Positions 37 to 37,686 of a stretch of DNA of 53,714 nucleotides are shown here, piece after piece; position 1 is the stretch's first letter, and every line of letters begins with the position of its first letter. Both the position numbers and the translations under genes were made by a program. This DNA is from an uncultured Bifidobacteriaceae bacterium (GTDB taxonomy: Bacteria; Acidobacteriota; Vicinamibacteria; Vicinamibacterales; UBA2999): the NCBI GenBank assembly GCA_964574545.1, contig CAZNOC010000003.1:1-53714 (forward strand), in the 5' to 3' direction. Under the pieces are notes generated by a model. That model saw nothing but the letters and a program-made list of their open reading frames with translations, was not told the DNA's origin and did not search any database.

Positions 37-999
37 ATGCGTCTTCGCAAACTACACGTGGGCTGTTTCGGGGGCGGGACCGGTCTCCCGAGCCTCATTG
101 GCGGGCTGAAGCGCAATCCCTGGTTGCAGGTCAACGCCGTGGTCACCATGTTCGACAGCGGCGGCAGTTCGGGCCAGCTTCGTGACGAACTCGGCGTGCT
201 GCCTCCCGGCGACGTGCTCCGATGCGCGCTCGCGCTGGCGCGAAATGAAGGCGAGGCGCGCCGGGTCCTGCTCGCGCGTCTGCCGACGCTCGTCGGTCAC
301 GAGCGGCTCGGCGGACACACGGGCGGCAACCTGCTGCTGTCGATGATGGAGCGGTACAGCGGCGACTTCCTGGCCGCCGTAGACGGGCTGCGCGCGCTGC
401 TTGGCTGCCAGGGCCGCGTCTGGCCCGTGAGCGTCGAGGGGGCCTCGGTCTGCGCCGAGTACGCCGACGGCCACGAGACCGCCGGAGAGGTCGAAGTGGA
501 CCTGGGACATCGGCGGGGCCACGAGGTACGGCGGGTATGGCTCGAGCCCACACCCGCGATCCACCCCGCGGTGCGTGACGCCATTGCCGGGTTCGATGCC
601 GTCGTGATCGGTCCCGGAAGCTTCTTCACCAGCCTCATGCCGACGTTGCTCGTAGCCGGCGTTCGTGAGGCGCTGGCCCGCGTGGACGGCCCGATCATCC
701 TCGTGGCCAATCTCCTCACCGAAGGGCGAGGGATGCACGGATTCACCGCGGCAGATGCCGTGCAGTGGGTCGAGCGAACGATCGGCCGCTCCGTGAATGT
801 CGTCCTGGTCAACACGGGGCAACCGGCGGCCGAGGTGCTCTCGAGGTATGCCGCCGAGCACAAGCACCCCCTCGCCCTGGGCCCGTTGCCGCCGGAATGC
901 GAAGTCGTCGAGGGGGAGTTCTGGTCGCACGGCATCGCCCGGCACGACCGCCGCAAGCTGTCGTACGCGGCGTGGGCAGTGCTCAGCCGTCAGCTGTGA
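37..999 (+). CDS. yvcK: YvcK/CofD-family gluconeogenesis factor (UDP-GlcNAc-binding)
   Basis: GGGTG, DSGGSSG..R, PPGD, GHxxGNL and GPGSxFTS motifs. Confidence 0.9.
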   Translation: MRLRKLHVGCFGGGTGLPSLIGGLKRNPWLQVNAVVTMFDSGGSSGQLRDELGVLPPGDVLRCALALARNEGEARRVLLARLPTLVGHERLGGHTGGNLLLSMMERYSGDFLAAVDGLRALLGCQGRVWPVSVEGASVCAEYADGHETAGEVEVDLGHRRGHEVRRVWLEPTPAIHPAVRDAIAGFDAVVIGPGSFFTSLMPTLLVAGVREALARVDGPIILVANLLTEGRGMHGFTAADAVQWVERTIGRSVNVVLVNTGQPAAEVLSRYAAEHKHPLALGPLPPECEVVEGEFWSHGIARHDRRKLSYAAWAVLSRQL

Positions 1000-1012
1000 T
1001 GCACTCCGCGCG

Positions 1013-1765
1013 TCAACCCTGATCCTTCGTGCGGCGTCTGCCCTGGCTCGCCCGGGGTGCGTGCGAGCGCTGACGGCCCTCCGCAGGCGCAGGCGTGTCC
1101 TTCGCTTCGATCACTTGCGCCAGGATCCGCTGGTAGAGACGGCCCGTGTCGCCGGTCTTTGCCGGTGGGTTGCGAGTCCACACGTCGGGCACGCCGCTCC
1201 CGATGATCTCCGCGAAGTCGGCGCCGGGCGTCTTCACGCTGTGCGGCGCGAACTCTGTGATGTCGAGCGGGCCCGACCATTCGTCGCGGTGCTTGATCAG
1301 CAGCCAGCTCGGTTTGCTGCCGCCGCCGTAGCCACGCGTGCGCACGAGCGCCCAGGAGCCCTTCAGCTTGTAGCCCTCGAGCCGGAACTTCAGGTCGCCT
1401 TTCCTGAGCGCGGCGCCGACGTCGGAGACTTCGGGCACCCACGTGCCGTAGTCCCAGAGCATCACGATCCCCGCACCGTACCCTTCAGGAATCACCCCTT
1501 CGAACATGCCGTAGTCCATCGGGTGGTCCTCGGTCTGCATCGCGAGCCGCTTGTCGCTGGTGTCGATCGATGGCCCCTTCGGCACGGCCCACGACAGCAG
1601 GACGCCGTCGTGCTCGAGCCGCAGGTCGTAGTGCAGATGGCTGGCGAGGTGCTTCTGGACGCAGAAGAACAGGTCGCCGTTTCGCTTCCGCCGGGCGGCC
1701 GCGTCACCGGAGGGCTCGGGCGTCTTCGAGAAGTCGCGCTTCCGGCGGTACTCGTCGAGCGGCAT
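1013..1765 (-). CDS. Stand-alone DNA ligase D 3'-phosphoesterase (PE) domain protein
   Basis: YRRKRDFSKTPEP, VQKHxAxxLHYDLRLE, SWAVPKGPS, EDHP, EGYGAG, WLLIK motifs. Confidence 0.9.
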   Translation of the reverse strand: MPLDEYRRKRDFSKTPEPSGDAAARRKRNGDLFFCVQKHLASHLHYDLRLEHDGVLLSWAVPKGPSIDTSDKRLAMQTEDHPMDYGMFEGVIPEGYGAGIVMLWDYGTWVPEVSDVGAALRKGDLKFRLEGYKLKGSWALVRTRGYGGGSKPSWLLIKHRDEWSGPLDITEFAPHSVKTPGADFAEIIGSGVPDVWTRNPPAKTGDTGRLYQRILAQVIEAKDTPAPAEGRQRSHAPRASQGRRRTKDQG

Positions 1766-1768
1766 CGG

Positions 1769-2217
1769 TCAGGCGGCCGTCAGGATCACCGGTCCCCCCC
1801 GGGTAATGACCAGCGTGTGCTCGTGGTGGGCGGCCAGGCTGCCGTCGCTCGTGCGGATCGTCCACCCATCGTCGTCCTCCACGGGATCCGCGGCGCCGGC
1901 GCTGATCATCGGTTCGATCGTCAGGACGAGGCCTTCGGTCAGGATGTCTCGCTGCCAGGGGTCGAACTCGTTGGGCACGGTCGGCGGCTCGTGAATCGTC
2001 CGGCCCACGCCGTGCCCGGCCAGGCGCGGACGACGGAGAAGCCCTGGCGGCGGACGGCGCGGCTCACGGCAACGCGCAGCAGCGCAGCGGCAACCCGGTC
2101 GAGCTCGCCGGTGGTCACCCCGGCGCGGACGTGTGTCTCGACGGCGTCCAGAACGAGGCGGGTGACGCGCCTCACCTCTCGCAGCCCCTTCCAGTCCGCT
2201 GTGGATTCGATCGACAT
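1769..2217 (-). pseudogene. map: Type I methionine aminopeptidase pseudogene (internal deletion plus frameshift)
   Basis: N-terminus MSIES...GVTTGELD in one frame and C-terminus GHGVGRTIHE...TIEPM...AHHEHT in another; frameshift near 2025; about 100 central codons missing. Confidence 0.85.
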
Positions 2218-2320
2218 CGCTCGGCCGCCTCCTCCGCCCTGGAACGACGCGGACTGCGACCGGCGTACGCGCTCGCATCCGTGCACCCCGGGCGACCCAT
2301 TCGATGATATACAGTCTGCC

Positions 2321-3745
2321 ATGTTCCTGACCGCCGTCCTCATCTACCTTGGGATTCTCGTGGTCTTCAGTCTGTGGCAGGCACGTGCCACGAGAACGGG
2401 AGACGACTTCCTGGTGGCGGGACGGAGCCTCCCGGCGCGGGTGCTCGTCTTCACGCTGCTGGCCACCTGGATCGGATCGGGAAGCCTGTTCGGCGGCGCC
2501 GGCCTGGGGTACCGGGCGGGCTTCGCAGCGCTGTGGCAGCCGGCCGGCGCGTGGGCGGGCATCCTGCTCATCTACTTCCTGGCGCCGCGGGTCCGCCGCA
2601 TCGCGAAGTACACCCTCCCCGACATTCTGCACCTTCGCTACGGCAGCGCGGCTCGCGTGCTTGGCACCTTCACGATCGTCATCGCCTACACGACCATCGC
2701 GGCCTACCAGTTCCGCGGCGGGGGCCGGCTCCTGGAACTGGTCGCCGGAATCGACGTCACCCAGGGCGCGCTCATCACGATGCTGTTCTGCGTGGCTTTC
2801 ACGGCGCTGGCCGGGATGATGTCGGTGGCGTATCTGGATGTCGGCAACGGCGTGATGATGCTCGTGGGCGTCGGCGCCGCGGTCGTCTTCCTGGTCCTGA
2901 ATGCCGGCGGCCCGGTGCCGGCGCTCGACGCGCTGCGGCCCGACCAGGTCGCCGTCTTCGGCACGCTCCACCCATGGCAGGATGCCGGGGCGATCTTCCT
3001 CCCCACCATGCTGCTGCTGATGGGGGAGGCGAACATGTACCAGAAGCTGTTCTCCGCCAGGGATGAAGGCGCGGCGAAGCGCGCCGTCGCCGGCTGGATC
3101 CTCGTCACGATCGTCGTCGAGACGCTCATCATCTCGGTGGGCGTCTTCGGAAGCACGCTCTTCCCGAACCTGACGGCAGGCGAGTCCGAGGCCATCGTCC
3201 TGCGGGTCGCGGTGTCAGGGCTGCCGACCGTGCTCGGGTTGATGCTCGTCTGCGGCGCGGCCGCCATCATCGTCTCCACGGCCAACAGCTTCCTGCTGGC
3301 GCCGGCGAGCGCGCTGATGCGGGACGTCTACCTTCCGTTTGTCAACCCGGATGCGACGGACAAACAGGTCCTGTTCGCGACACGCGCGATGGTGGTCGTG
3401 CTCGGCGTCACCGGTTTCCTGGCGCTTGGCTTCTTCAGCACGATTCTCGAGATGGCGCTCTGGGCCTACACGATGATCGGCGCCGGCATCACACCGGCCC
3501 TGCTCGCCGCCTTCCTGTGGCCCCGCGTGACGCGCTTCGGCGGCGTGGCGTCCATCATGGTCGGCATGGGCACCACGCTCGCGTGGGAGATTCTGGCGCG
3601 CCTGCGTGGCGGGGAAGGGGAGGCCTTGTATCTCTGGGGAGTGCCCACGATCTACCCCGCACTCGCGCTGGCCGTGGTGACGCTGGTCGTGGTCAGCCTG
3701 ATGTCACCCCCTCCGAGCGAGGCGGATAGGACAGCAATCAAGTAG
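2321..3745 (+). CDS. Sodium:solute symporter (SSS) family protein
   Basis: DFLVAGRSL, ATWIGSGS, many TM helices, AAIIVSTANS; true start inferred at ATG 2321 inside the long ORF 797..3745. Confidence 0.9.
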   Translation: MFLTAVLIYLGILVVFSLWQARATRTGDDFLVAGRSLPARVLVFTLLATWIGSGSLFGGAGLGYRAGFAALWQPAGAWAGILLIYFLAPRVRRIAKYTLPDILHLRYGSAARVLGTFTIVIAYTTIAAYQFRGGGRLLELVAGIDVTQGALITMLFCVAFTALAGMMSVAYLDVGNGVMMLVGVGAAVVFLVLNAGGPVPALDALRPDQVAVFGTLHPWQDAGAIFLPTMLLLMGEANMYQKLFSARDEGAAKRAVAGWILVTIVVETLIISVGVFGSTLFPNLTAGESEAIVLRVAVSGLPTVLGLMLVCGAAAIIVSTANSFLLAPASALMRDVYLPFVNPDATDKQVLFATRAMVVVLGVTGFLALGFFSTILEMALWAYTMIGAGITPALLAAFLWPRVTRFGGVASIMVGMGTTLAWEILARLRGGEGEALYLWGVPTIYPALALAVVTLVVVSLMSPPPSEADRTAIK

Positions 3746-4728: not shown

Positions 4729-6171
4729 ATGTCCGTCCTTCTGCTCTCCACCTACGATCTCGGCCGCCAGCCATTCGGGTTGGCCTCGCCCACCGCGTGG
4801 CTGCGCCGTGCCGGCGTCGAGACGCACGCCGTCGATCTGTCGCGTCACCGCCTCGACCCCGATCGGCTGGCGCGCGCCGCGCTGGTGGCGGTGTACCTCC
4901 CGATGCACACGGCCACCCGCCTGGCGCTTCCCGTCCTCGACGCCGTGCGCGCGCAGGCCTCCCACGCCCATCTTGCCGCCTATGGCCTTTATGCCCCGCT
5001 CAACGAACGGCTATTGAGGGATCACGGTGTCGAGACCATCCTTGGGCCCGAGTTCGAGGCCGATCTGGTCGCCCTGGCTCAGCGCACGCTGGAGACTGCC
5101 GGCCGGCGAGGCGCCTCCGGCCGCCGCGTGACGCCTGACGCCCCGGCCCCGTTCCACACCGCGAACCCTCGTCCCCGCCTGCCGCGCCTGTCCTTCATCA
5201 CCCCGGACCGCACAGGTTTGCCGTCGCTGTCGGAGTACGCGACGCTGCGCTGGCCCGATGGATCGTCGCGGCTCGTGGGCAGCACGGAGGCGACCCGCGG
5301 TTGCCGGCACTCGTGCCGCCACTGCCCGATCGTTCCGGTGTACGGCGGCCAGTTCCGCGCCGTGCCGGTGGACGTCGTACTGGAAGACATCGCGCAGCAG
5401 GTGGCGGACGGCGCCGGTCACATCACGTTTGCCGACCCCGACTTCCTCAACGGGCCCGCGCACGCGCGGCGCATCGTCGAAGGGCTGCACGCCCGCTGGC
5501 CGTCGCTCACCTACGACGCCACCATCAAGGTGGAACACCTGCGGCGCCATGCGGCCGTCCTGCCGGCGCTTCGGGACACGGGCTGCGCCTTCGTGACGAG
5601 CGCTGTCGAGTCGGTAGACGACCGGGTGCTCGAGCACCTCGACAAGGGGCACACTCGAGCCGATGTGATCTGGGTCTCGGAGGAACTTCGGCGCGTCGGG
5701 TTGCCGCTCGCGCCGACCTTCGTCGCGTTCACGCCGTGGACCACGCTGGAGAGCTACCTCGATCTGCTGGACACCATGGCGGCGCTCGACCTGGTCGAAC
5801 ACGTGGCACCCGTCCAGTGGACGCTGCGCCTGCTCGTCACGTGGCAGTCTCGCCTGCTCGAACTCGACAGCGTACGCGCGGTGACGCGCGCGTTCGATGC
5901 GCAGACCCTGACGTACCCGTGGCGCCATCCAGACCCGCGCGTCGATGCCCTGCAGCGGGACGTGATGACGCTCGTGGGCGTCCGCGCGAGCCGCGCGCGT
6001 CACGAGGTGTACGCGGAGATTCGCGCGCGTGCCTGCGAGGCGGTGGAAGGCCGGCGGGGGAGCCGGCTTCCCACGCGGCCGCCGCTCGTCGCGCGTGCCG
6101 CCATTCCGTACCTGAACGAACCCTGGTACTGTTGAGCGGAGCCCACTGGAGAGCAGGTGGCTCTCCTCTGA
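4729..6171 (+). CDS. CUAEP-tail radical SAM selenoprotein (Sec at TGA 6133-6135)
   Basis: CRHSCRHC 4Fe-4S motif; in-frame TGT TGA GCG GAG CCC reads C-U-A-E-P, then TGEQVALL and a stop at 6169-6171; hairpin directly after the UGA. Confidence 0.88.
6138..6164 (+). promoter_or_regulatory. Putative bacterial SECIS element
   Basis: GAG-c-CCA-CTG[GAGAG]CAG-g-TGG-CTC stem-loop directly 3' of the in-frame UGA, with a G-starting apical loop. Confidence 0.65.
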
Positions 6172-6176
6172 CGCGG

Positions 6177-6253
6177 TTCGCGATTCGCGATTCGCGATTC
6201 GTTGTTCGCAATTCGCGATTCGCTATTCGCAGGTCGCGATTCGCGATTCGCAG
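6177..6253. repeat. Heptamer tandem repeat (TTCGCGA) x11
   Basis: 11 consecutive degenerate units, with palindromic core TCGCGA in the intact ones. Confidence 0.9.
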
Positions 6254-6288
6254 CCAGGCGCCAGTCGCTGTTTCCCTTAGTGCCCTTC

Positions 6289-7554
6289 GTGAAGCGCATC
6301 CTTCTGCTGGCGACGACAACGGGGTATCAGACCCGGATGTTCGGGGAGGCCGCCGCGCGGATCGGCGTCGAACTGCAGTTCGCCACCGACCGGTGCGACC
6401 AGCTCGAAAATCCCTGGCGCGATGGGGCGATTGCCATTCGCTTCGCGGCGGAGGAGGACTCCGTCCAGGCGATCGTCAAGGCCGCCCGGGATCGGCCGTT
6501 CGACGGGATGCTGACGGTCGGCGATGGCCCCGTCGTGATTGCCGCGCGCGTCGCCGCGGCCCTCGGGATGCCAGGCCACCCACCGGAGGCTGCCGCCGCC
6601 AGCCGCGACAAGCAGCGGTTCCGAGCGCGCCTGAGCGCGGCGAAGCTGTCCGTGCCCTGGTTCACGACCGTGACGGCCGACACAGATCCCGCCACGCTGC
6701 GCGACCGCGTGCCGTTCCCCTGTGTCGTCAAACCCGTCGCGCTTTCGGGCAGCCGCGGCGTCATCAGGGCGAACGATGGACGGGAGTTCGTCGAGGCGTA
6801 CGAGCGGCTGCGGCGCCTGCTGGAGTCGCCGGAGGTGCGGGCCTCGCGTGATGCCGCGACCCGGCTGATTCACGTGGAAGGCTACATCGACGGAGAGGAG
6901 TTCGCCCTCGAGGGCGTGCTCGATAGCGGCCGCCTGCAGACGTTCGCCCTCTTTGACAAACCCGATCCGCTCGTGGGCCCCTTCTTCGAAGAGACGATCT
7001 ACCTCACCCCTTCGCGCCGGTCCGCCCGGCTGCAGGCCACAATCGGACGCGCGGTCGAGGCGGCGGTGAAGGCCGTCGGGCTGCTCCACGGCCCCGTGCA
7101 CGCGGAATGCCGCGTGGGACAGGAAGGCTGCGTCGTGATCGAAGTCGCGGCCCGGCCGATCGGCGGGCTGTGTGCGCGGGCACTGAGGTTCGACGGGCCC
7201 GCGGGACACGGGATATCGCTCGAGGAGGTGCTGCTCCGCCATGCGATGGGTGAACCCGTGGACGGCTACGTGCGCGAGCCTCAGGCGTCTGGCGTGATGA
7301 TGATCCCCATTCCGCGTGAGGGCGTGTACCGGGGAGTGGAGGGGGTGGAGGAGGCCGAAGCTGTCGCGGGCGTGGACCAGGTCACCATCACCGCACGGCC
7401 CGACCAGCGGCTCGTGCCCCTGCCGGAGGGCGCAAGCTATCTGGGCTTCATCTTTGCTCGCGGCGCGGGACCAGCCGAGGCCGAGCGGTCGTTGCGGCAG
7501 GCGCACCGCGCGCTGCGGTTCGCGATCGATCCCCGCATCCCGTTGCGACAGTGA
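6289..7554 (+). CDS. ATP-grasp domain protein (L-amino-acid ligase-like)
   Basis: DKxxFR, VVKPxxLSGSRGV, VEGYIDGEE, HAE, IEVAARPIGG motifs; GTG start inferred at 6289. Confidence 0.88.
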   Translation: MKRILLLATTTGYQTRMFGEAAARIGVELQFATDRCDQLENPWRDGAIAIRFAAEEDSVQAIVKAARDRPFDGMLTVGDGPVVIAARVAAALGMPGHPPEAAAASRDKQRFRARLSAAKLSVPWFTTVTADTDPATLRDRVPFPCVVKPVALSGSRGVIRANDGREFVEAYERLRRLLESPEVRASRDAATRLIHVEGYIDGEEFALEGVLDSGRLQTFALFDKPDPLVGPFFEETIYLTPSRRSARLQATIGRAVEAAVKAVGLLHGPVHAECRVGQEGCVVIEVAARPIGGLCARALRFDGPAGHGISLEEVLLRHAMGEPVDGYVREPQASGVMMIPIPREGVYRGVEGVEEAEAVAGVDQVTITARPDQRLVPLPEGASYLGFIFARGAGPAEAERSLRQAHRALRFAIDPRIPLRQ

Positions 7555-7585
7555 CCTTGTCGCTGATGCGCCGCTCCGGCCGAGC

Positions 7586-7915
7586 CTACTTGGCCTGCTG
7601 CGGGACGTAGCCCGGCGGCAGCGCCGCTCCCTCCCCGAAGAAGAACTCCTCGAGGTGCTTCAGGATGAGCTCCTGACCTTCCTTCTGCCACGGCATCAGG
7701 CGGTATTCATTCAGGATCATCTTCTGGCGCTCTTCCCACAGCTTCCAGGCGTCCGCCGAGACGTGATCGTAGATGCGCTGACCGATCTCCCCGGGCCACG
7801 GCGCCATGTCGAGACCCGGGAGCTGCTTCTGCAACTTCACGCAGAAGACCGTGCGCCCGCTCGTACCGCCGGCCGGCTCGCCCTGGCCCGACGGGGGGCC
7901 GCCACTCATGCTCAT
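7586..7915 (-). CDS. yggX: Fe(II)-trafficking / oxidative damage protection protein YggX
   Basis: RTVFCVKL...GL...PGEIGQRIY..VS..AW..W...Q.M.LNEYRL...GYVP; GGAGG RBS and TACAAT upstream. Confidence 0.92.
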   Translation of the reverse strand: MSMSGGPPSGQGEPAGGTSGRTVFCVKLQKQLPGLDMAPWPGEIGQRIYDHVSADAWKLWEERQKMILNEYRLMPWQKEGQELILKHLEEFFFGEGAALPPGYVPQQAK

Positions 7916-8009
7916 GCCATCGCCTCCAGCCACAGATTGTACTCCCTGCCAGACCGCCAACGAGGCGGGCGGCTGGTATCATGAAGCGTCACCTTCGCCA
8001 CTAAGCACC

Positions 8010-8228
8010 GTGGAACCCGAAGACCGCCATCGCCTCTGCTGGTACAGCCGCCGCACGCCGGAGATCCCCGAGGACCTGGGTCTCCAGACGATCGTTGACG
8101 GCCACCTGCTGTACTGCGCCCACCCCATGTGGTTCCCCGTCGTGGGCTACCAGTTCGAAGTCTCCAACTGCGCAGACTGCGATTACTTCCGGGCGACGAA
8201 GTCCAGTCGCGGCTCGTCGCTCGAATAG
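8010..8228 (+). CDS. Small Cys-rich hypothetical protein (72 aa)
   Basis: GC3-biased codons; C-x25-C-x17-CxxC pattern; GTG start inferred. Confidence 0.55.
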   Translation: MEPEDRHRLCWYSRRTPEIPEDLGLQTIVDGHLLYCAHPMWFPVVGYQFEVSNCADCDYFRATKSSRGSSLE

Positions 8229-8365
8229 CGCGCGCCCGTCGGAGCGGCGCCTCACGACCTGACTGAACCTTTGTATTGGTTCTTGTCGGGCTGGGAGCTC
8301 TACTGTAGTGATTTCATTCACCGCCCGTTAGATACGGGCTGATGACCTAAGTATAAGTCATTTAT

Positions 8366-8378
8366 TTTCAATATTTTA
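8366..8378 (+). promoter_or_regulatory. Putative IHF-binding site
   Basis: TTTCAATATTTTA versus consensus WATCAANNNNTTR, in an AT-rich patch upstream of a sigma-54 promoter. Confidence 0.55.
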
Positions 8379-8402
8379 ACTGAGTGGCAGATCCAGCTCA
8401 GG

Positions 8403-8418
8403 TGGCACGCGCCTTGCG
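8403..8418 (+). promoter_or_regulatory. Sigma-54 (-24/-12) promoter
   Basis: TGGCACG-CGCC-TTGC with exact GG-N10-GC spacing, about 30 bp upstream of the KGG gene. Confidence 0.8.
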
Positions 8419-8448
8419 ATTGAACCCAGGCATAAGGAGGCAAGAATC

Positions 8449-8709
8449 ATGACCGAGCACCGCAAGGAGCGCCGTGGGTTTGCGTCGATGTCGGCCGAGA
8501 AGCAGCGCGAGATCGCCAGCAAGGGTGGACGCGCCGCGCATGCCAAGGGCACGGCACACGAGTGGAGTTCTGATGAGGCTCGTGCCGCCGGACGCAAGGG
8601 CGGAATGATGAGCCGCGGCGGACGCGGGAAGCTTCCCGAGGGCACCTCCGACGAGGCAGCCACTTCCACCCCGAACCCGCCCATTCCCACCAACGAGGGG
8701 AGCGTCTAG
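8449..8709 (+). CDS. KGG-domain general stress protein (YciG/Con-10 family)
   Basis: RGFASM..EKQREIASKGG...AHEW..DEARAAGRKGG; AAGGAGG RBS. Confidence 0.92.
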   Translation: MTEHRKERRGFASMSAEKQREIASKGGRAAHAKGTAHEWSSDEARAAGRKGGMMSRGGRGKLPEGTSDEAATSTPNPPIPTNEGSV

Positions 8710-8790
8710 CCGCCCACCGTCGGTGGCTGCGATTGAGTCGCCGCGAGGCGAACTGCGCTGACAGGCCTGCGGTCTAAGGCGCAACCTCGC

Positions 8791-10818
8791 TTAGGGAGTG
8801 AGTCGAGCGACCTGCACTCTGGCGTCGTTGAAGCAGGCGCCGCCCCCGAGATCTGTCAGCGTGTCCGGGACCAGGGCATTTGAAGTCCATCCCAGAGGCA
8901 CGCTGCGGCGCCACACCCCTTTCGGATAGGACACCGTGCCCGGCCGCACGTGCGTTGTCACGTGCGCCGGGCACGTCATCTCTCCGAGGGCGTTGAAGAC
9001 GCGCACCTCGTCGCCGTCCCGCACGCCGCGCGTCGCGGCATCGTCCGGATGCATGTCCAGCGTCGCCGTCGGCCGGGGCAACTCCCCGAGCGTTGAGCTG
9101 ATCGTGCGGTCGCTCGCCGGCGAAATCAGCGACAGGGGGTACTCGCGTGTCGCGGGGTCCGGCCGGAACGTGTACAGCCCGAGCGGAGCCTCCTGCTCGA
9201 GCGCTTCGTCGAAGAGATGTACCTTGCCATCAGACGTCCGCGGGAAGACGTCTACGAACTGAATTGGCCGCGCCCCGCCAGGGGGGATGGGCATGGTGCC
9301 GCTGCGCAACGCGTCGGCCGCCTCCGTAGGCAGTCCACTCATCACGGCCAGCATCGCGTCCAGCTCCCCCTGGGGATCGTCGTCCCTGTCCAGGCCGGTT
9401 CGGCGCAGGAGGTCCGCGAAAACGTCGGCATTGGCCCGGGCCTCACCGACCTGGTCGATGACGGGCCGTCCCAGTTGCAGGGTGATCGGCCCGTAGCCCC
9501 GTACGAAGTCGTAGCCTTCCAGAAACGTCGTCGCCGGCAGCACGACGTCCGCGTACACCGCCGTGTCGGTCATCACCTGCTCGAACACCACTGTGAACAG
9601 GTCCTCGCGTTCGAGGCCCTTGATCACCCTCGCCTGGTCGGGAAGCGTGACGGCCGGATTGCAGTTGTAGACGAACAGCACGTCGATCGGAGCGCCCTCG
9701 GGTTCGGTCAGCGCGCGGCCCACGCGATTGATGTTCACGACTCGCGTCGCCGGCTCCTGATCCCGAATCCACGTCTTCTCGATGCCCCACGACGCCGTGT
9801 TGCTCATCGAGTATCCGCCTCCGCGAATCCCGAACTTGCCGCCGACGGCCGGCAGCGCGAGCACGGCCAGCGCGGCGTTGCCTCCATTCCGGTTGCGTTC
9901 CAGGCCCCAGCCGCACTTCACCAGAGCCGGACTGGCGCCGGCGTACATCTCCGCAAACGTCGTCACCTGGTCTACCGTGAGACCGGTGACCTCGGCCGTC
10001 CGCACCGGCGTCCACGGCTCCGCGCGTTCTCGCAGTTGCTCCCATCCGGTCGTGTGCTCGGCCAGGAAGCCGAGGTCCGCTGTACCGCTGTGGAAGAGAT
10101 GCCGGTGCACGGCCATGGCCAGAGCGACATCGCTGCCCGGTCGCGGCGCCAGGTGCAGATCGGCCTGGCGCGCAAGCGGCGTGGTGCGGGGGTCGATGAC
10201 GACGATGGTGGTGCCCCTGGTGCGGGCATCCTTCAGGTACGGCATCAGGTGAATGCCGGACACCCCGGGGTTCACCCCCCAGAGCACGATCAGCCTGGCT
10301 TCTGGATAGTCCTGATACGTCGTCGAGGCCATCTTGCCGTAGGCCGCCTGGTTGGCGGCACCGGTGGGCGCGGCGCAGAGCGTCCGTGCGAGGCGGGATG
10401 CACCCAGCCGCCGGAACAGGGCCGCGTCGGTCGTGTCCTGAGTGAGCAGGCCGTTCGATCCCCCGTAGCAGAGCGGAAGGACCGACGCGCCGCCGGTACG
10501 CTGGTGCGCATCGACGAGCCTGTCGGCCACGAGCGACAACGCTTCCTCCCAGTTCACCCGCTCGAAGCGGCCCTCACCCTTGGCGCCTCGTCGCACCGCG
10601 GGGTAAAGCAGGCGGTCGTCGCCGTAGACGCGCTGATGAAATCTCCGAACCTTCGCGCAGATGTAGCCGTTGGTCACCTCGTTGCTGCGGGCGCCGTCGA
10701 TGGTCGTAATCCTCCCGCCGCGCACCGTCACCGACAGCGTGCAGGCGTCGGGGCAGTCAAGGGGGCAGGCAGTTTCGACGGTGGACTCGGTGGGCGCGAT
10801 ACCGGGGCGGACAGCCAT
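8791..10818 (-). CDS. Molybdopterin-dependent oxidoreductase (DMSO reductase family, 4Fe-4S)
   Basis: CPLDCPDAC...ICAK, RLLYP, WGxNP, TDTAxYADVVLPA, C-terminal molybdopterin dinucleotide-binding domain. Confidence 0.9.
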   Translation of the reverse strand: MAVRPGIAPTESTVETACPLDCPDACTLSVTVRGGRITTIDGARSNEVTNGYICAKVRRFHQRVYGDDRLLYPAVRRGAKGEGRFERVNWEEALSLVADRLVDAHQRTGGASVLPLCYGGSNGLLTQDTTDAALFRRLGASRLARTLCAAPTGAANQAAYGKMASTTYQDYPEARLIVLWGVNPGVSGIHLMPYLKDARTRGTTIVVIDPRTTPLARQADLHLAPRPGSDVALAMAVHRHLFHSGTADLGFLAEHTTGWEQLRERAEPWTPVRTAEVTGLTVDQVTTFAEMYAGASPALVKCGWGLERNRNGGNAALAVLALPAVGGKFGIRGGGYSMSNTASWGIEKTWIRDQEPATRVVNINRVGRALTEPEGAPIDVLFVYNCNPAVTLPDQARVIKGLEREDLFTVVFEQVMTDTAVYADVVLPATTFLEGYDFVRGYGPITLQLGRPVIDQVGEARANADVFADLLRRTGLDRDDDPQGELDAMLAVMSGLPTEAADALRSGTMPIPPGGARPIQFVDVFPRTSDGKVHLFDEALEQEAPLGLYTFRPDPATREYPLSLISPASDRTISSTLGELPRPTATLDMHPDDAATRGVRDGDEVRVFNALGEMTCPAHVTTHVRPGTVSYPKGVWRRSVPLGWTSNALVPDTLTDLGGGACFNDARVQVARLTP

Positions 10819-10978: not shown

Positions 10979-11398
10979 TCAGCCGGGCAACGCCCAGTCC
11001 TCCCACGCCAGATCATCCACACGTCCGAACTCACGCGAGTTGGCTGTGACGAGCGTCAACCCACGCCGGACGGCCTGCCCCGCAATCAGCGCGTCGTAGG
11101 CCCCGATGGGCGTGCCCGACCGTTCGAGCAACGCCCTCACCTCTCCCCCCGCGCGCGCATCAGCATCGTCAAACGCGAGCACCTCGACGGGACCCGACAG
11201 GAACGTCTGGACTCGCGCGGTGTTCTGCTCGCGCCGTTCGCTCTTCGCGACTCCGTACCAGAGCTCGTGCAGGACCACGGTGGACACGCACACGACACCA
11301 CCGTTCCCGAGAGCGCGCTGGAAGCGGGCACGTACGGGTACCGACGTACCGTTGATAAGCGCGATGCACGCGTTCGTGTCGAGCGAGTACTCGATCAC
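10979..11398 (-). CDS. vapC: VapC PIN-domain toxin
   Basis: LDTN, ELWYG, PIGAYDALIAG, LVTAN.REF motifs. Confidence 0.93.
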   Translation of the reverse strand: MIEYSLDTNACIALINGTSVPVRARFQRALGNGGVVCVSTVVLHELWYGVAKSERREQNTARVQTFLSGPVEVLAFDDADARAGGEVRALLERSGTPIGAYDALIAGQAVRRGLTLVTANSREFGRVDDLAWEDWALPG

Positions 11399-15631: not shown

Positions 15632-16927
15632 GTGCCCGGCGCCGACCACAGCCTTCCTCACGTCGTGATCGTCGGCGGCGGGTTCGGGGGCCTCTTCGCC
15701 GCCCGTGCCCTGCGCAGGACGCCTGTCCGCGTCACCCTGATCGATCGCCAGAACCACCACCTCTTCCAGCCCCTGCTCTACCAGGTGGCCACCGCCGTGC
15801 TCTCCCCCGGAGACATCGCCGCGCCGATCCGCTGGGTGCTGCGAGGCCAGCGACACCTGCGTGTCCTGATGGGCGAAGTGACCTCGATCGACACGAGCGC
15901 GCGACGTGTGGTGCTCGAGAATGGCGACGAGGTGGAGTACGACTTCCTGATCGTTGCGGCCGGCGCCACGCATGCGTACTTTGGACAGGACGCGTGGGCG
16001 AGCTTCGCGCCCGGCTTGAAGACGCTCGATGACGCGCTCGACCTCCGGCGGCGGGTGCTCGTCGCCTTCGAACGGGCCGAGCGCGAACCCGATCCGGCGC
16101 GTCAGCGCAGGTGGCTCACGTTCGCGATCGTCGGCGGCGGGCCGACGGGCGTGGAGTTGGCGGGCAGCCTCGCCGAGATCGCGCGGCACACCCTCCGCCG
16201 CGAGTACGCGGCCGTTGATCCGCGGTCGTCGCGCGTCATGCTGATTGAGGCCGGGCCGAGCATCCTCTCCTCCTTTCCCGCGCCCCTGCGCGAGCGGGCC
16301 AGGCGATCGCTGCGCGAGTTGGGGGTCGAGGTCCGTGAAGGCGAGGCCGTCACCGACATCGGTGACGGCTTCGTCAGGATCGGCCCGGATCTGGTGGCGG
16401 CGCAGACAGTCATCTGGGCCGCCGGGGTGGCCGCCTCGCCCCTCGGTCGTTCGCTCGACGTGCCGCTCGATCGCGCGGGCCGGGTGATCGTCGAACCCGA
16501 TCTGTCCATCCCGGGCCGTCCGGAGGTGTTCGTCGTGGGAGACCTCGCCTCCTTCACGCACCAGACCACGGCACCTCTGCCGGGAGTGGCGCAGGTGGCG
16601 ATGCAGGGCGCGGCATCGGCGGCCGTCAACATCCGCCGGCGGCTGGCAGGACAGCCATCGGTGCCGTTCCGGTATCGCGACTACGGCAACATGGCGACGA
16701 TTGGCCGCGCGTCGGCGGTGGCCGACTTCGGATGGGCGCGCCTGTCAGGATATCCCGCCTGGTTGATGTGGCTGTTCATCCACCTGGTCTGGCTGGTGGG
16801 CTTCAGGAGCCGAGTGTCCGTCCTGCTGCAGTGGGCGGTCTCGTACGTGTCCTACCAGCGGAGCGTCCGGCTGATCACGGGGCGGCCGGCTTCGGTCCCC
16901 CGTCGAGAGCAGGCCCTTCCGGACTAG
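15632..16927 (+). CDS. ndh: Type II NADH dehydrogenase (FAD-dependent)
   Basis: GGGFGG, FQPLLYQVAT, GGGPTGVE, WAAGV, GD, AQVAMQ motifs. Confidence 0.9.
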   Translation: MPGADHSLPHVVIVGGGFGGLFAARALRRTPVRVTLIDRQNHHLFQPLLYQVATAVLSPGDIAAPIRWVLRGQRHLRVLMGEVTSIDTSARRVVLENGDEVEYDFLIVAAGATHAYFGQDAWASFAPGLKTLDDALDLRRRVLVAFERAEREPDPARQRRWLTFAIVGGGPTGVELAGSLAEIARHTLRREYAAVDPRSSRVMLIEAGPSILSSFPAPLRERARRSLRELGVEVREGEAVTDIGDGFVRIGPDLVAAQTVIWAAGVAASPLGRSLDVPLDRAGRVIVEPDLSIPGRPEVFVVGDLASFTHQTTAPLPGVAQVAMQGAASAAVNIRRRLAGQPSVPFRYRDYGNMATIGRASAVADFGWARLSGYPAWLMWLFIHLVWLVGFRSRVSVLLQWAVSYVSYQRSVRLITGRPASVPRREQALPD

Positions 16928-36457: not shown

Positions 36458-36853
36458 ATGACGACGTTTCAGTCCATCATCCCCAACCTCATCGTGCGCG
36501 ACATCGACGCGAGCGCGCGCTTCTACCAGGAAGTGCTCGGCTTTGCCGTCAAGACGACCGTGCCGGACGAGGCGCCCTTCGTCTTCGTCTGGCTCGAGCG
36601 CGATGGTGTGCCGGTGTTCCTGAACGATGCGGCGACGGTGGACCACGACCTTCCGGGCGCGGGTCACCGGCCGCCCGGCGGGACGGCGACCCTCTTCTTC
36701 ACGGTGACCGACGTCGACGCGTACCATCGCCTCGTTGCGCCCCGTGCCAAGGTGGTCATGCCGCTCAAGACACAGTTCTACGGGATGCGGGAATTTGCGA
36801 TCGAGGACCCGGACGGGCACATCCTCACGTTTGCCGAAAAGGTCGGCGGGTGA
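36458..36853 (+). CDS. VOC/glyoxalase family protein
   Basis: L.VRDI..S..FY..VLGF ... QFYGMREF.IEDPDG; AAGGAG RBS. Confidence 0.9.
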   Translation: MTTFQSIIPNLIVRDIDASARFYQEVLGFAVKTTVPDEAPFVFVWLERDGVPVFLNDAATVDHDLPGAGHRPPGGTATLFFTVTDVDAYHRLVAPRAKVVMPLKTQFYGMREFAIEDPDGHILTFAEKVGG

Positions 36854-37686
36854 GCGAGTTCCGTTCGGTGCCGCCCGCCGAGGCGCAGGCGCTTGTCGAG
36901 GCCGGCGCCGTACACGTGCTCGACGTGCGGACGCCCGACGAGTTCCGGCGCCTGGGGCACATCCCGGGGGCCTGGCTCCTGCCCGTGGACCTCGTCGCGG
37001 CGGCGCCGCCCGTGCTCCCACGGGACGGAAAGCCCGTGCTTGTCTACTGCGAGCACGGTGTCCGCAGCGTCGCGGCGTGTCAGTGGCTCGGCCTCGCCGG
37101 CGTGACGCCCCTGATCAACATGGCGGGCGGCATGTCTGCCTGGACCGGGCCGCGCGTCTTCGGCCCCGGCATCGTGCACGGGCCCTCGACGTGGCTGCTC
37201 GAGCACGCCGACCTGATCCCGCCGAACGCGCGCGTGCTGGATGTGGCGTCGGGCCGTGGCAGGCACGCGCTGCTGCTGGCGGCGTCCGGCTTCGAGGTGA
37301 CGGCTGTCGATCGGGATGCCGAGGCGCTCGCGTGGCTGGCGGCGACGGCGGCGCGTGCAGGGGTCGCGATCGCGACAGAAGCCCGCGACCTCCAAACGGG
37401 AGACGACGTGGAGTTTGGAGAGGGCCGGTTCGACCTCGTGCTGGTCTTCAACTACCTCCATCGGCCGTTGTTCCCGGCGATCGTCAAAGCGCTCGCGCCC
37501 GGTGGCGTCCTGTTCTACGAGACCTTTCTCGTCGGCCAGGAAGCACGGGGCGGCCCGAAGAACCCGGCGTTCCTGCTCGAACCGGGTGAGCTCCCGTCGA
37601 GGGTCGCACCGCTTGTGGTGGTGCGCCAGCGCGAGGGCGAGGTGGACGGCAAGCTGACGAGCGCGGTAGTAGCGCGGAGGGACTGA
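36850..37686 (+). CDS. Rhodanese / class I SAM methyltransferase (TehB-like) fusion
   Basis: LDVR..EF..GHIPGA and YCEHGVRS rhodanese motifs; VLDVASGRGRH, FNYLHR, L.PGG methyltransferase motifs. Confidence 0.85.
   Translation: MSEFRSVPPAEAQALVEAGAVHVLDVRTPDEFRRLGHIPGAWLLPVDLVAAAPPVLPRDGKPVLVYCEHGVRSVAACQWLGLAGVTPLINMAGGMSAWTGPRVFGPGIVHGPSTWLLEHADLIPPNARVLDVASGRGRHALLLAASGFEVTAVDRDAEALAWLAATAARAGVAIATEARDLQTGDDVEFGEGRFDLVLVFNYLHRPLFPAIVKALAPGGVLFYETFLVGQEARGGPKNPAFLLEPGELPSRVAPLVVVRQREGEVDGKLTSAVVARRD

Follow-up and report, generated by a model that had tools for sequence, protein, structure and literature searches.

The system described here lies in a stretch of 53,714 nucleotides of contig CAZNOC010000003.1, from a soil bacterium (assembly GCA_964574545.1; GTDB order Vicinamibacterales, phylum Acidobacteriota), which is referred to below, at its full length of 53.7 kb, as the window. 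It consists of a radical S-adenosylmethionine (SAM) enzyme (rSAM) carrying selenocysteine (Sec) in its C-terminal tail, an ATP-grasp protein of the L-amino-acid-ligase type encoded directly downstream in the same direction, and the protein YggX. The rSAM belongs to the named CUAEP/CCAEP-tail family and is kin to ArsL, and its gene is coupled to those of the ligase and YggX both in genomic position and in phyletic distribution; the trio turns up again in several phyla of bacteria. By analogy with ArsL, we propose, with confidence about evenly balanced between acceptance and doubt, that the rSAM would split SAM into methylthioadenosine (MTA) and a 3-amino-3-carboxypropyl (ACP) radical, that a soft atom X held on Cys468 and Sec469, perhaps with Cys286, would capture this radical, that the resulting 2-amino-4-X-butanoate would be ligated, and that YggX would guard the iron-sulfur cluster. 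An earlier note, made from the letters of the window, had reported an rSAM gene with the motif CRHSCRHC and a tail reading WYC-U-AEP, followed by a co-directional ATP-grasp gene; this observation was confirmed. The features of the system are as follows.

4729..6171, + strand: CUAEP-tail radical SAM selenoprotein, 480 aa, Sec at codon 469 (translation with TGA read as Sec; model NF040546)
5302..5325, + strand: codons of the CxxxCxxC motif (C192, C196, C199), predicted [4Fe-4S] ligands (homologue alignment)
5584..5586, + strand: codon of Cys286 (TGC), a family-specific core Cys proposed as a third ligand (alignment; role inferred)
6133..6135, + strand: in-frame TGA encoding Sec469 (Cys/TGA column; Sec machinery in the genome)
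6148..6166, + strand: selenocysteine insertion sequence (SECIS) hairpin with a 7-bp stem and an AGGUG loop, 12 nt 3' of the TGA (covariation)
6289..7554, + strand: L-amino-acid-ligase-type ATP-grasp protein, about 421 aa, GTG start (Pfam domains; co-occurrence with the rSAM)
7586..~7915, - strand: YggX, Fe(2+)-trafficking/oxidative-damage protection protein (PF04362, NF003817; start uncertain, ATG at 7913–7915 proposed)

The rSAM is a selenoprotein of the CUAEP family

The rSAM frame opens with the ATG at 4729, a start that agrees with the N-termini of 26 aligned homologues, and closes with a second TGA at 6169–6171; the TGA at 6133–6135 is the only internal one. The product matched the rSAM_CUAEP model NF040546 with 602.2 bits (cut-off, 500), residues 3–478 aligning with model positions 1–467 of 468, and a genomic profile search with the same model gave 595.7 bits with one TGA inside the match. 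The Pfam Radical_SAM domain spans residues 188–327, and both the cluster motif, G-C-R-H-S-C-R-H-C, and the tail, which ends in NEPWYC-U-AEPTGEQVALL, are invariant in the family alignment. By these scores the protein is an ordinary full-length member of the named family to which the earlier note had assigned it. That note had also called the family uncharacterised, in agreement with the only paper we found that names it; no other relevant paper turned up. The family is large, with at least 8000 protein clusters retrieved at E ≤ 1e-10.

The coding of Sec was assessed across 110 homologous loci, namely that of the window, 29 found in relatives and 80 taken from a set with a single genome for each GTDB species (a few loci of the latter two sets represent the same species). 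The sequence EPWYC[U/C]AEP was present in 109 of them, with TGA in the variable column in 61 and a Cys codon in 48, and the frame was conserved beyond it; the exception, L108, is cut by a contig end. Downstream of the TGA, window positions 6148–6154 pair with 6160–6166. In a covariation test on 54 of the 58 distinct Sec-form sequences (the near-duplicates L039, L040, L049 and L054 were left out), the stem positions were paired in 88.1% of cells, compared with 77.2 ± 1.2% in shuffles (reached by 0 of 500) and 44.7–51.1% when the partner was slid. Double-change cells numbered 43, against 16.6 ± 2.9 in the shuffles (again 0 of 500). Moreover, pairing at these positions held in 88% of cells in 57 Sec-form genes versus 42% in 46 Cys-form genes. 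Folded as a lone sequence, the region gave no significant result (z = -0.74).

The window's genome encodes selA (527.7 bits), selB (336 bits) and selD (273.5 bits), all above their cut-offs, together with a tRNA-Sec with anticodon tca. Because the TGA alternates with Cys, the SECIS hairpin is confined to the TGA forms and the genome holds selA, selB, selD and tRNA-Sec, the in-frame TGA is, on this comparative evidence, a true Sec codon. In the databases, Sec-form proteins usually end where the TGA stands, which hides their tail. In Thermomicrobium roseum, for instance, RefSeq protein WP_012643191.1 ends in SWFC, while the DNA continues TGA-GCG-GAG-CCG (U-A-E-P; NC_011961.1, L127 10363–10450) and holds a hairpin-capable stretch after the TGA. 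As the DNA runs on past the annotated end, the selenoprotein tail is missing from that record. Cultured carriers of the Sec form include T. roseum DSM 5159 and Solirubrobacter taibaiensis KCTC 29222.

The cluster Cys triad is invariant in all 27 CUAEP and all 6 RCCLKC-tail/ArsL sequences compared. A further residue, Cys286, is kept in 26 of the 27 CUAEP sequences (L115 has a Cys one column earlier), and the same column holds Val or Leu in the 6 RCCLKC/ArsL sequences. The CUAEP family thus again has three chalcogens outside the cluster, namely Cys286 in the core and Cys468 and Sec469 on the tail, and we infer from the alignment that the three may form one site.

Relationship of the rSAM to ArsL

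By sequence comparison, ArsL, the RCCLKC-tail family, is by far the nearest characterised family to the window's rSAM. Its model NF040542 was the second best, with 253 bits (below the cut-off of 450) over residues 3–414 on model positions 1–409 of 423, and the remaining rSAM families reached at most 48 bits. A tblastn search of plasmids returned 37 records, one of them a CUAEP gene on the T. roseum megaplasmid and the other 36 RCCLKC-tail/ArsL genes, with 28–31% identity over about 86% of the query. A maximum-likelihood tree was calculated from 22 sequences of the CUAEP family, 6 of the RCCLKC/ArsL type and, from the window's genome, 2 paralogous rSAMs, leaving out the frameshifted L099 and one fragmentary outgroup. 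In this tree the CUAEP and RCCLKC sequences grouped together against the outgroups at 99/97, and the RCCLKC sequences were monophyletic (100/100), their long branch joining that of the T. roseum sequence at 100/99. Since the outgroup branches are very long, the tree is compatible both with ArsL as a sister of the CUAEP family and with ArsL as a lineage inside it. Across the two families 40 positions are invariant. The kinship with ArsL that the earlier note had put forward is borne out by the near full-length profile match (253 bits versus 48 for the next family) as well as by the tree; the rSAM clusters with ArsL and the idea stands.

The two enzymes are alike in about 410 alignable residues at 28–31% identity, in the CxxxCxxC motif and in a Cys-rich extreme C-terminus. 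They differ in the tail, which in the window's rSAM is C-U/C-A-E-P with two chalcogens and in ArsL is R-C-C-L-K-C with three Cys; the CCxxC pattern is absent from the window's enzyme. In addition, the window's rSAM is about 55 residues longer and has Cys286 where ArsL has Val or Leu. Their neighbourhoods differ as well: none of the ArsL-family neighbours ArsM, ArsQ, ArsN1, ArsR and aquaporin lies near the window's rSAM, which is linked to YggX, whereas ArsL-family genes are linked to a small CMD/AhpD-like protein.

According to the literature on ArsL, this enzyme cleaves SAM to MTA and the ACP radical, and its three C-terminal Cys bind As(III); their removal abolishes C-As bond formation, while SAM cleavage remains. 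The same literature describes ArsL as the only canonical-fold radical SAM enzyme known for the ACP radical, and a review gives the tail variant MCCA as most active on methylarsenate. Dph2 of diphthamide biosynthesis also generates an ACP radical from SAM, a feature that it would share with the window's rSAM if the ArsL analogy holds; Dph2, however, lacks the CxxxCxxC motif and the rSAM fold, and acts on a protein.

The ATP-grasp ligase and its coupling to the rSAM

The ligase gene begins 117 nt downstream of the rSAM gene. Its product matched the Pfam domains ATPgrasp_N (38.6 bits), ATP-grasp_4 (101 bits) and LAL_C2 (63.7 bits), all over their gathering scores, and among solved structures the closest is that of the L-amino acid ligase BL00235 (3VOT; E 6.5e-39), an enzyme that produces Met-Gly and Met-Met according to a review. 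The three-domain architecture is common to the window's ligase and to the L-amino acid ligases BL00235, BacD, RizA, TabS and DdaF, and the motifs VVKP, H..E and IEV.AR align with those of BL00235. The protein stays far below the equivalog cut-offs of BacD (42.9 versus 850) and DdaF (32.5 versus 840), and, unlike the known L-amino acid ligases, it belongs to a separate orthologous group, which accompanies the CUAEP rSAM.

The relatives comprise 61 genomes of the same order; these are not independent of each other and no statistical test was applied. Gene calls in the other loci came from a simple script based on third-codon-position GC content, so that gene ends can be wrong. The unpublished genomes G026, G068 and G108, one genome each, are among those counted and no conclusion rests on them. 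In 27 of the 29 loci from relatives, the ligase lies directly downstream of the rSAM; of the two exceptions, L010 ends at a contig edge and L018 keeps a 38-residue ligase remnant. The GTDB-species loci contain the ligase in 63 of 80 cases, 60 of them co-directional and downstream, while L063 and L104 are convergent and L113 has the ligase upstream. It is missing in the other 17, six of which have less than 1.2 kb of downstream sequence.

This linkage is matched by the distribution of the two genes. An rSAM is present in 42 of the 61 relatives (37 over the cut-off and 5 as broken or split pieces), and a ligase orthologue was found in exactly those 42, being split in G006, G034 and G036. The 19 rSAM-negative relatives contain no ligase orthologue, the match in G053 being a paralogue with 34% identity; this ATP-grasp paralogue (G053:C352:2988-4461) adjoins YggX in a genome without the CUAEP rSAM. 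G052 keeps intact copies of both genes at a distance of 1.5 Mb, and in G036 both are degraded to pseudogenes. Of ten genomes without a ligase near the rSAM, eight encode an orthologue elsewhere, with 43–55% identity; the remaining two are Solirubrobacter taibaiensis (L073) and an Acidobacteriaceae metagenome-assembled genome (MAG; L075). The T. roseum megaplasmid record contains the rSAM and no ligase; the search was confined to that record.

The coupling was further examined in 151 evenly drawn Chloroflexota genomes, whose completeness is not given, so that the "only" and "neither" classes below may include missed genes.

rSAM and ligase: 27 genomes
rSAM only: 2 genomes, one with a partial gene
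ligase only: 8 genomes
neither: 114 genomes

Thus, the ligase occurs in 27 of 29 rSAM-positive and in 8 of 122 rSAM-negative genomes. The two genes appear there in convergent, rSAM-then-ligase, ligase-then-rSAM or unlinked arrangements. As adjacency is retained while the order is shuffled, and as the genes are retained together when unlinked and lost together, these observations argue for a functional coupling of rSAM and ligase beyond mere adjacency. The earlier note's proposal of an amino-acid-ligase-like partner is accordingly upheld, by the domain architecture as regards the type of enzyme and by the co-occurrence as regards its tight coupling to the rSAM; linkage to the ATP-grasp gene held beside rSAM homologues, leaving the idea unrefuted. 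Two proteins, P0124 and P0125, were considered as rSAM-ligase fusions (Rosetta stones) and rejected; their junction reads the tail motif out of frame (VVLLRRA), which marks them as frameshifted read-throughs of adjacent genes.

The surroundings of the rSAM in L073 and L075 share a circularly permuted ATP-grasp, a Mur-type ligase, a double thioredoxin and a GT1 glycosyltransferase, the former locus having TauD, DUF169 and an AMP-binding enzyme as well and the latter YcaO. These genes may form a natural-product cluster drawing on the same building block.

An ATP-grasp protein is also found in five of the six ArsL-family plasmid clusters that were opened, those of Alicyclobacillus, Priestia, Bacillus cereus, Klebsiella and Pantoea (L128, L129, L130, L132 and L133); the arsQ-arsL-arsM cluster of Pseudomonas has none. 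All five carry ATP-grasp_4, and the two Firmicutes proteins scanned add a weak LAL_C2 match. Each adjoins a small protein, which is CMD/AhpD-like by Pfam in Alicyclobacillus, Priestia, Bacillus and Pantoea and has no Pfam match in Klebsiella. ArsR, an aquaporin, a CobW-type GTPase and an acetyltransferase of the GNAT or ArsN1 type are further members of these five clusters, to which those of Alicyclobacillus, Klebsiella and Pantoea add ArsM and a major facilitator superfamily (MFS) transporter. By analogy, these ATP-grasp proteins support the notion that the ligases act on the amino-acid product of the rSAM. No published connection of arsinothricin with an ATP-grasp protein was found in our literature search.

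YggX as a third partner

The YggX gene is convergent with the ligase gene and lies 31 nt beyond its end. Its product scored 110.1 bits with PF04362 (cut-off, 27) and 113.8 bits with NF003817, and its N-terminal Cys is invariant in 18 of 18 aligned sequences, the C-terminal Lys being nearly so. To our knowledge, the exact mechanism of YggX is not settled. A YggX match accompanies 54 of the 63 ligase-containing loci. Where the rSAM is unlinked, YggX adjoins the ligase (L121–L125, including one Chloroflexota and one Gammaproteobacteria genome), and in other Chloroflexota it stands beside the rSAM instead, the called YggX end overlapping the rSAM start in some loci. A strong YggX (at least 106 bits) was found in 20 of the 151 Chloroflexota, all of them rSAM-positive, and in each case no more than about 0.6 kb separates the gene from the rSAM or the ligase. 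The 122 rSAM-negative Chloroflexota contain no strong YggX, and 9 weaker matches of 49.5–69.7 bits occur among them. YggX, which the earlier note had missed, is thus a third partner, and in at least two phyla it is coupled to the two enzymes. In 8 of 18 Chloroflexota loci (L134, L139–L141, L149–L151 and L137), a PurU-like formyltransferase (Formyl_trans_N) is the neighbour of YggX or of the rSAM.

Proposed mechanism

Based on the kinship with ArsL, we propose that the rSAM would cleave SAM at the C-gamma-S bond to give MTA and the ACP radical, as in ArsL. The mobile C-terminal pair Cys468-Sec469, perhaps with Cys286, would hold a soft heteroatom that captures the radical, and free 2-amino-4-X-butanoate would be released. 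The ligase would then join this compound to another amino acid at the expense of ATP, and YggX may protect or service the oxygen-labile [4Fe-4S] cluster in the mostly aerobic hosts. Like the ACP-radical chemistry and the nature of the acceptor atom, the sequence in which the two enzymes act and the part played by YggX are proposals. That the product would be an amino acid fit for ligation is suggested by the products of BL00235, by the ATP-grasp proteins of the ArsL clusters and by the other ligases around the rSAM in L073 and L075. The atom X is probably not arsenic, and sulfur or selenium is the leading guess.

Several observations weigh against this proposal. At about 30% identity, the kinship with ArsL would leave room for canonical 5'-deoxyadenosyl chemistry. 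The tail of the rSAM offers two chalcogens where that of ArsL has three, and Cys286 is a candidate third ligand. The ATP-grasp proteins of the ArsL clusters are just 23–25% identical to the window's ligase, so that the pairing in those clusters is an analogy and does not indicate shared ancestry of the pair. Eight Chloroflexota have a ligase homologue without the rSAM and two the rSAM without the ligase, and, given the kinship among genomes, the co-occurrence counts exceed the number of independent events. Likewise, 9 of the 29 rSAM-positive Chloroflexota have no YggX, and YggX occurs in 56 of the 61 relatives with or without the rSAM, so that its adjacency in Acidobacteriota could be positional. 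The leads towards sulfur are also few, weak and in no case decisive. In L063, from a Pyrinomonadaceae MAG, a Sulfotransfer_3 domain precedes the ligase orthologue in one fusion protein (7420–9606, - strand; 728 aa), whose gene is accompanied by YcaO and by a second rSAM. Near the rSAM, L105 encodes a sulfotransferase and a sulfonate-type ATP-binding cassette (ABC) system and L110 an aryl-sulfotransferase. P0128, in which ligase, PSP1 and sulfite reductase are joined, is known from one unverified protein and counts as a weak lead.

Alternative explanations

Foremost among the alternatives, although we consider it unlikely, is canonical 5'-deoxyadenosyl chemistry, for example on a substrate made by the ligase, in which the Cys-Sec pair would be a redox or hydrogen-atom-donating tail and not a substrate holder. 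Sec-for-Cys exchange is typical of redox-active sites, and thioredoxin reductase has a C-terminal Cys-Sec. The CxxxCxxC motif and the Pfam Radical_SAM domain would suit such chemistry, as would the N-terminal domain, which is B12-binding-like in several homologues (Pfam E 1e-6 to 1e-8, near the cut-off); the weaker NCBIfam matches of the rSAM are B12-binding rSAM families. Nevertheless, the only full-length characterised relative is the noncanonical ArsL, canonical families do not exceed the 48 bits mentioned above, and many residues of the active-site region are invariant across the CUAEP and ArsL families.

An improbable alternative is a protein modification resembling that of diphthamide, in which the rSAM would add the ACP group to a protein residue, with YggX as the obvious candidate, and the ATP-grasp protein would amidate or extend the carboxylate. 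Diphthamide synthesis likewise combines an ACP-radical enzyme with an ATP-dependent ligase. The genomic tie of YggX to both enzymes across phyla, the restriction of strong YggX to their company in Chloroflexota, and the invariant Cys and nearly invariant C-terminal Lys of YggX are consistent with this idea. On the other hand, the ligase has the three-domain architecture of ligases for free amino acids, most of the relatives without the module are among the 56 that encode YggX, the YggX of E. coli (included as a search control) works without these enzymes, and the nine rSAM-positive Chloroflexota mentioned above do without YggX.

The earlier note had favoured a metalloid, with the Cys-Sec tail binding As, Sb or a similar element, an arsinothricin-like amino acid as the product of the rSAM and a Trojan-horse peptide antibiotic as that of the ligase. 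ArsL as the nearest characterised family and the ATP-grasp proteins in the ArsL-family plasmid clusters of Alicyclobacillus, Priestia, Bacillus, Klebsiella and Pantoea would agree with it, and, according to the literature, a vicinal-Cys tail variant of ArsL works on methylarsenite. In L063, a mer-type operon (MerR/MerT-HMA/CopZ-like) lies on the other side of the CUAEP gene from the ligase fusion and divergent from it, a further point that would fit a metal or metalloid. However, the note's own remark that the window contains no arsM or ars resistance gene holds for the full 53.7 kb, and the set ArsR, ArsM, aquaporin and ArsN1-type GNAT, like the MFS/ArsQ transporters that accompany ArsL, is absent from the window and from the 14 diverse CUAEP loci that were annotated. 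The window's genome lacks a close arsinothricin-type ArsM (best match, 61 bits and 27% identity), and no conserved exporter or self-resistance gene was seen with the rSAM-ligase pair. Moreover, the pair is common in the order (42 of 61 genomes), with long vertical runs and a constant position next to a housekeeping gene, which sets it apart from a sporadic antibiotic cluster. Such vertical runs in Acidobacteriota, together with the tie to YggX, make the module look more like a physiological one. With neither ars genes nor a close ArsM nor an exporter, and with only two chalcogens on the tail, a metalloid substrate and a Trojan-horse product find no support, and we regard this explanation as very improbable.

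Finally, inherited synteny without a functional link, which might be suspected from the conservation of gene order by descent in loci drawn mostly from one phylum, has next to nothing left in its favour, as it is contradicted by the co-occurrence of the two genes when unlinked, the persistence of adjacency despite shuffled order and orientation in Chloroflexota, the joint absence in 19 of 19 genomes and the joint decay in G036.

Other features of the window

The spacer between the rSAM and ligase genes contains the following repeat.

6172..6251, no strand: CGCGATT 7-nt tandem repeat, 11.4 copies (Tandem Repeats Finder)

This repeat was considered as part of the module and rejected, since similar repeats are spread across the whole genome: 199 period-7 arrays of at least four copies were counted, with many different units and several at contig ends. 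Short tandem repeats are also present in 28 of 71 homologous rSAM-ligase spacers, mostly of period 7–9 and with a unit that differs per locus. The CGCGATT repeat is therefore probably not specific to the rSAM-ligase system, and intergenic heptamer microsatellites look like a trait of these Vicinamibacterales genomes. Rfam, promoter and terminator scans gave only sub-threshold or chance-level matches.

Upstream, an open reading frame for a Na+/solute symporter (797–3745, + strand) has an N-terminal extension of about 500 residues without a family match and overlaps the end of a CofD/YvcK-like gene (1–999); its true start is unclear. Symporter homologues lie directly upstream of the rSAM in several relatives. 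This symporter and an alpha/beta hydrolase, also upstream, were rejected as parts of the system, being conserved among close relatives only. Elsewhere the window encodes a molybdopterin oxidoreductase of the formate-dehydrogenase/dimethyl sulfoxide (DMSO)-reductase superfamily (8791–10818, - strand), a VapC-like PIN toxin (10979–11398, - strand), a pyridine-nucleotide disulfide oxidoreductase weakly like the "N-terminal to SelD" family (15632–16927, + strand) and a rhodanese-plus-methyltransferase protein with weak likeness to TehB (36850–37686, + strand). None of these four genes is conserved beside the module.

Implications

In the literature searched, which did not cover the supplements of the ArsL papers, we found neither the coupling of the rSAM to the ligase and YggX, nor the third Cys, nor the parallel with the ArsL clusters. 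The family closest to ArsL turns out to be much larger than ArsL's own, with members in 42 of the 61 genomes of the order and in 29 of 151 Chloroflexota. The rSAM, the ligase and YggX constitute a concrete three-protein system, which suggests carbon-heteroatom chemistry beyond arsenic, and YggX, long studied with its mechanism unclear, is tied to a specific enzyme pair. The presence of ATP-grasp proteins in many ArsL-family clusters suggests in turn that arsinothricin-like compounds may also occur as peptides.

A wider picture can be drawn, although it is quite unlikely to be right as a whole. The three proteins may constitute a widespread, hitherto unnoticed pathway of aerobic soil bacteria (Acidobacteriota, Chloroflexota and some Proteobacteria) in which an ArsL-like ACP radical would make a C-S or C-Se bond on sulfur or selenium carried by the Cys-Sec tail. 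The ligase would turn the (seleno)homocysteine-type amino acid into a small peptide, for example a thiol or selenol of low molecular weight, which would act alongside YggX in protecting iron-sulfur clusters and in the defence against oxidative stress, and ArsL would be a specialised arsenic offshoot of the larger family. In any case, the module gives an experimental entry into a very large uncharacterised family.

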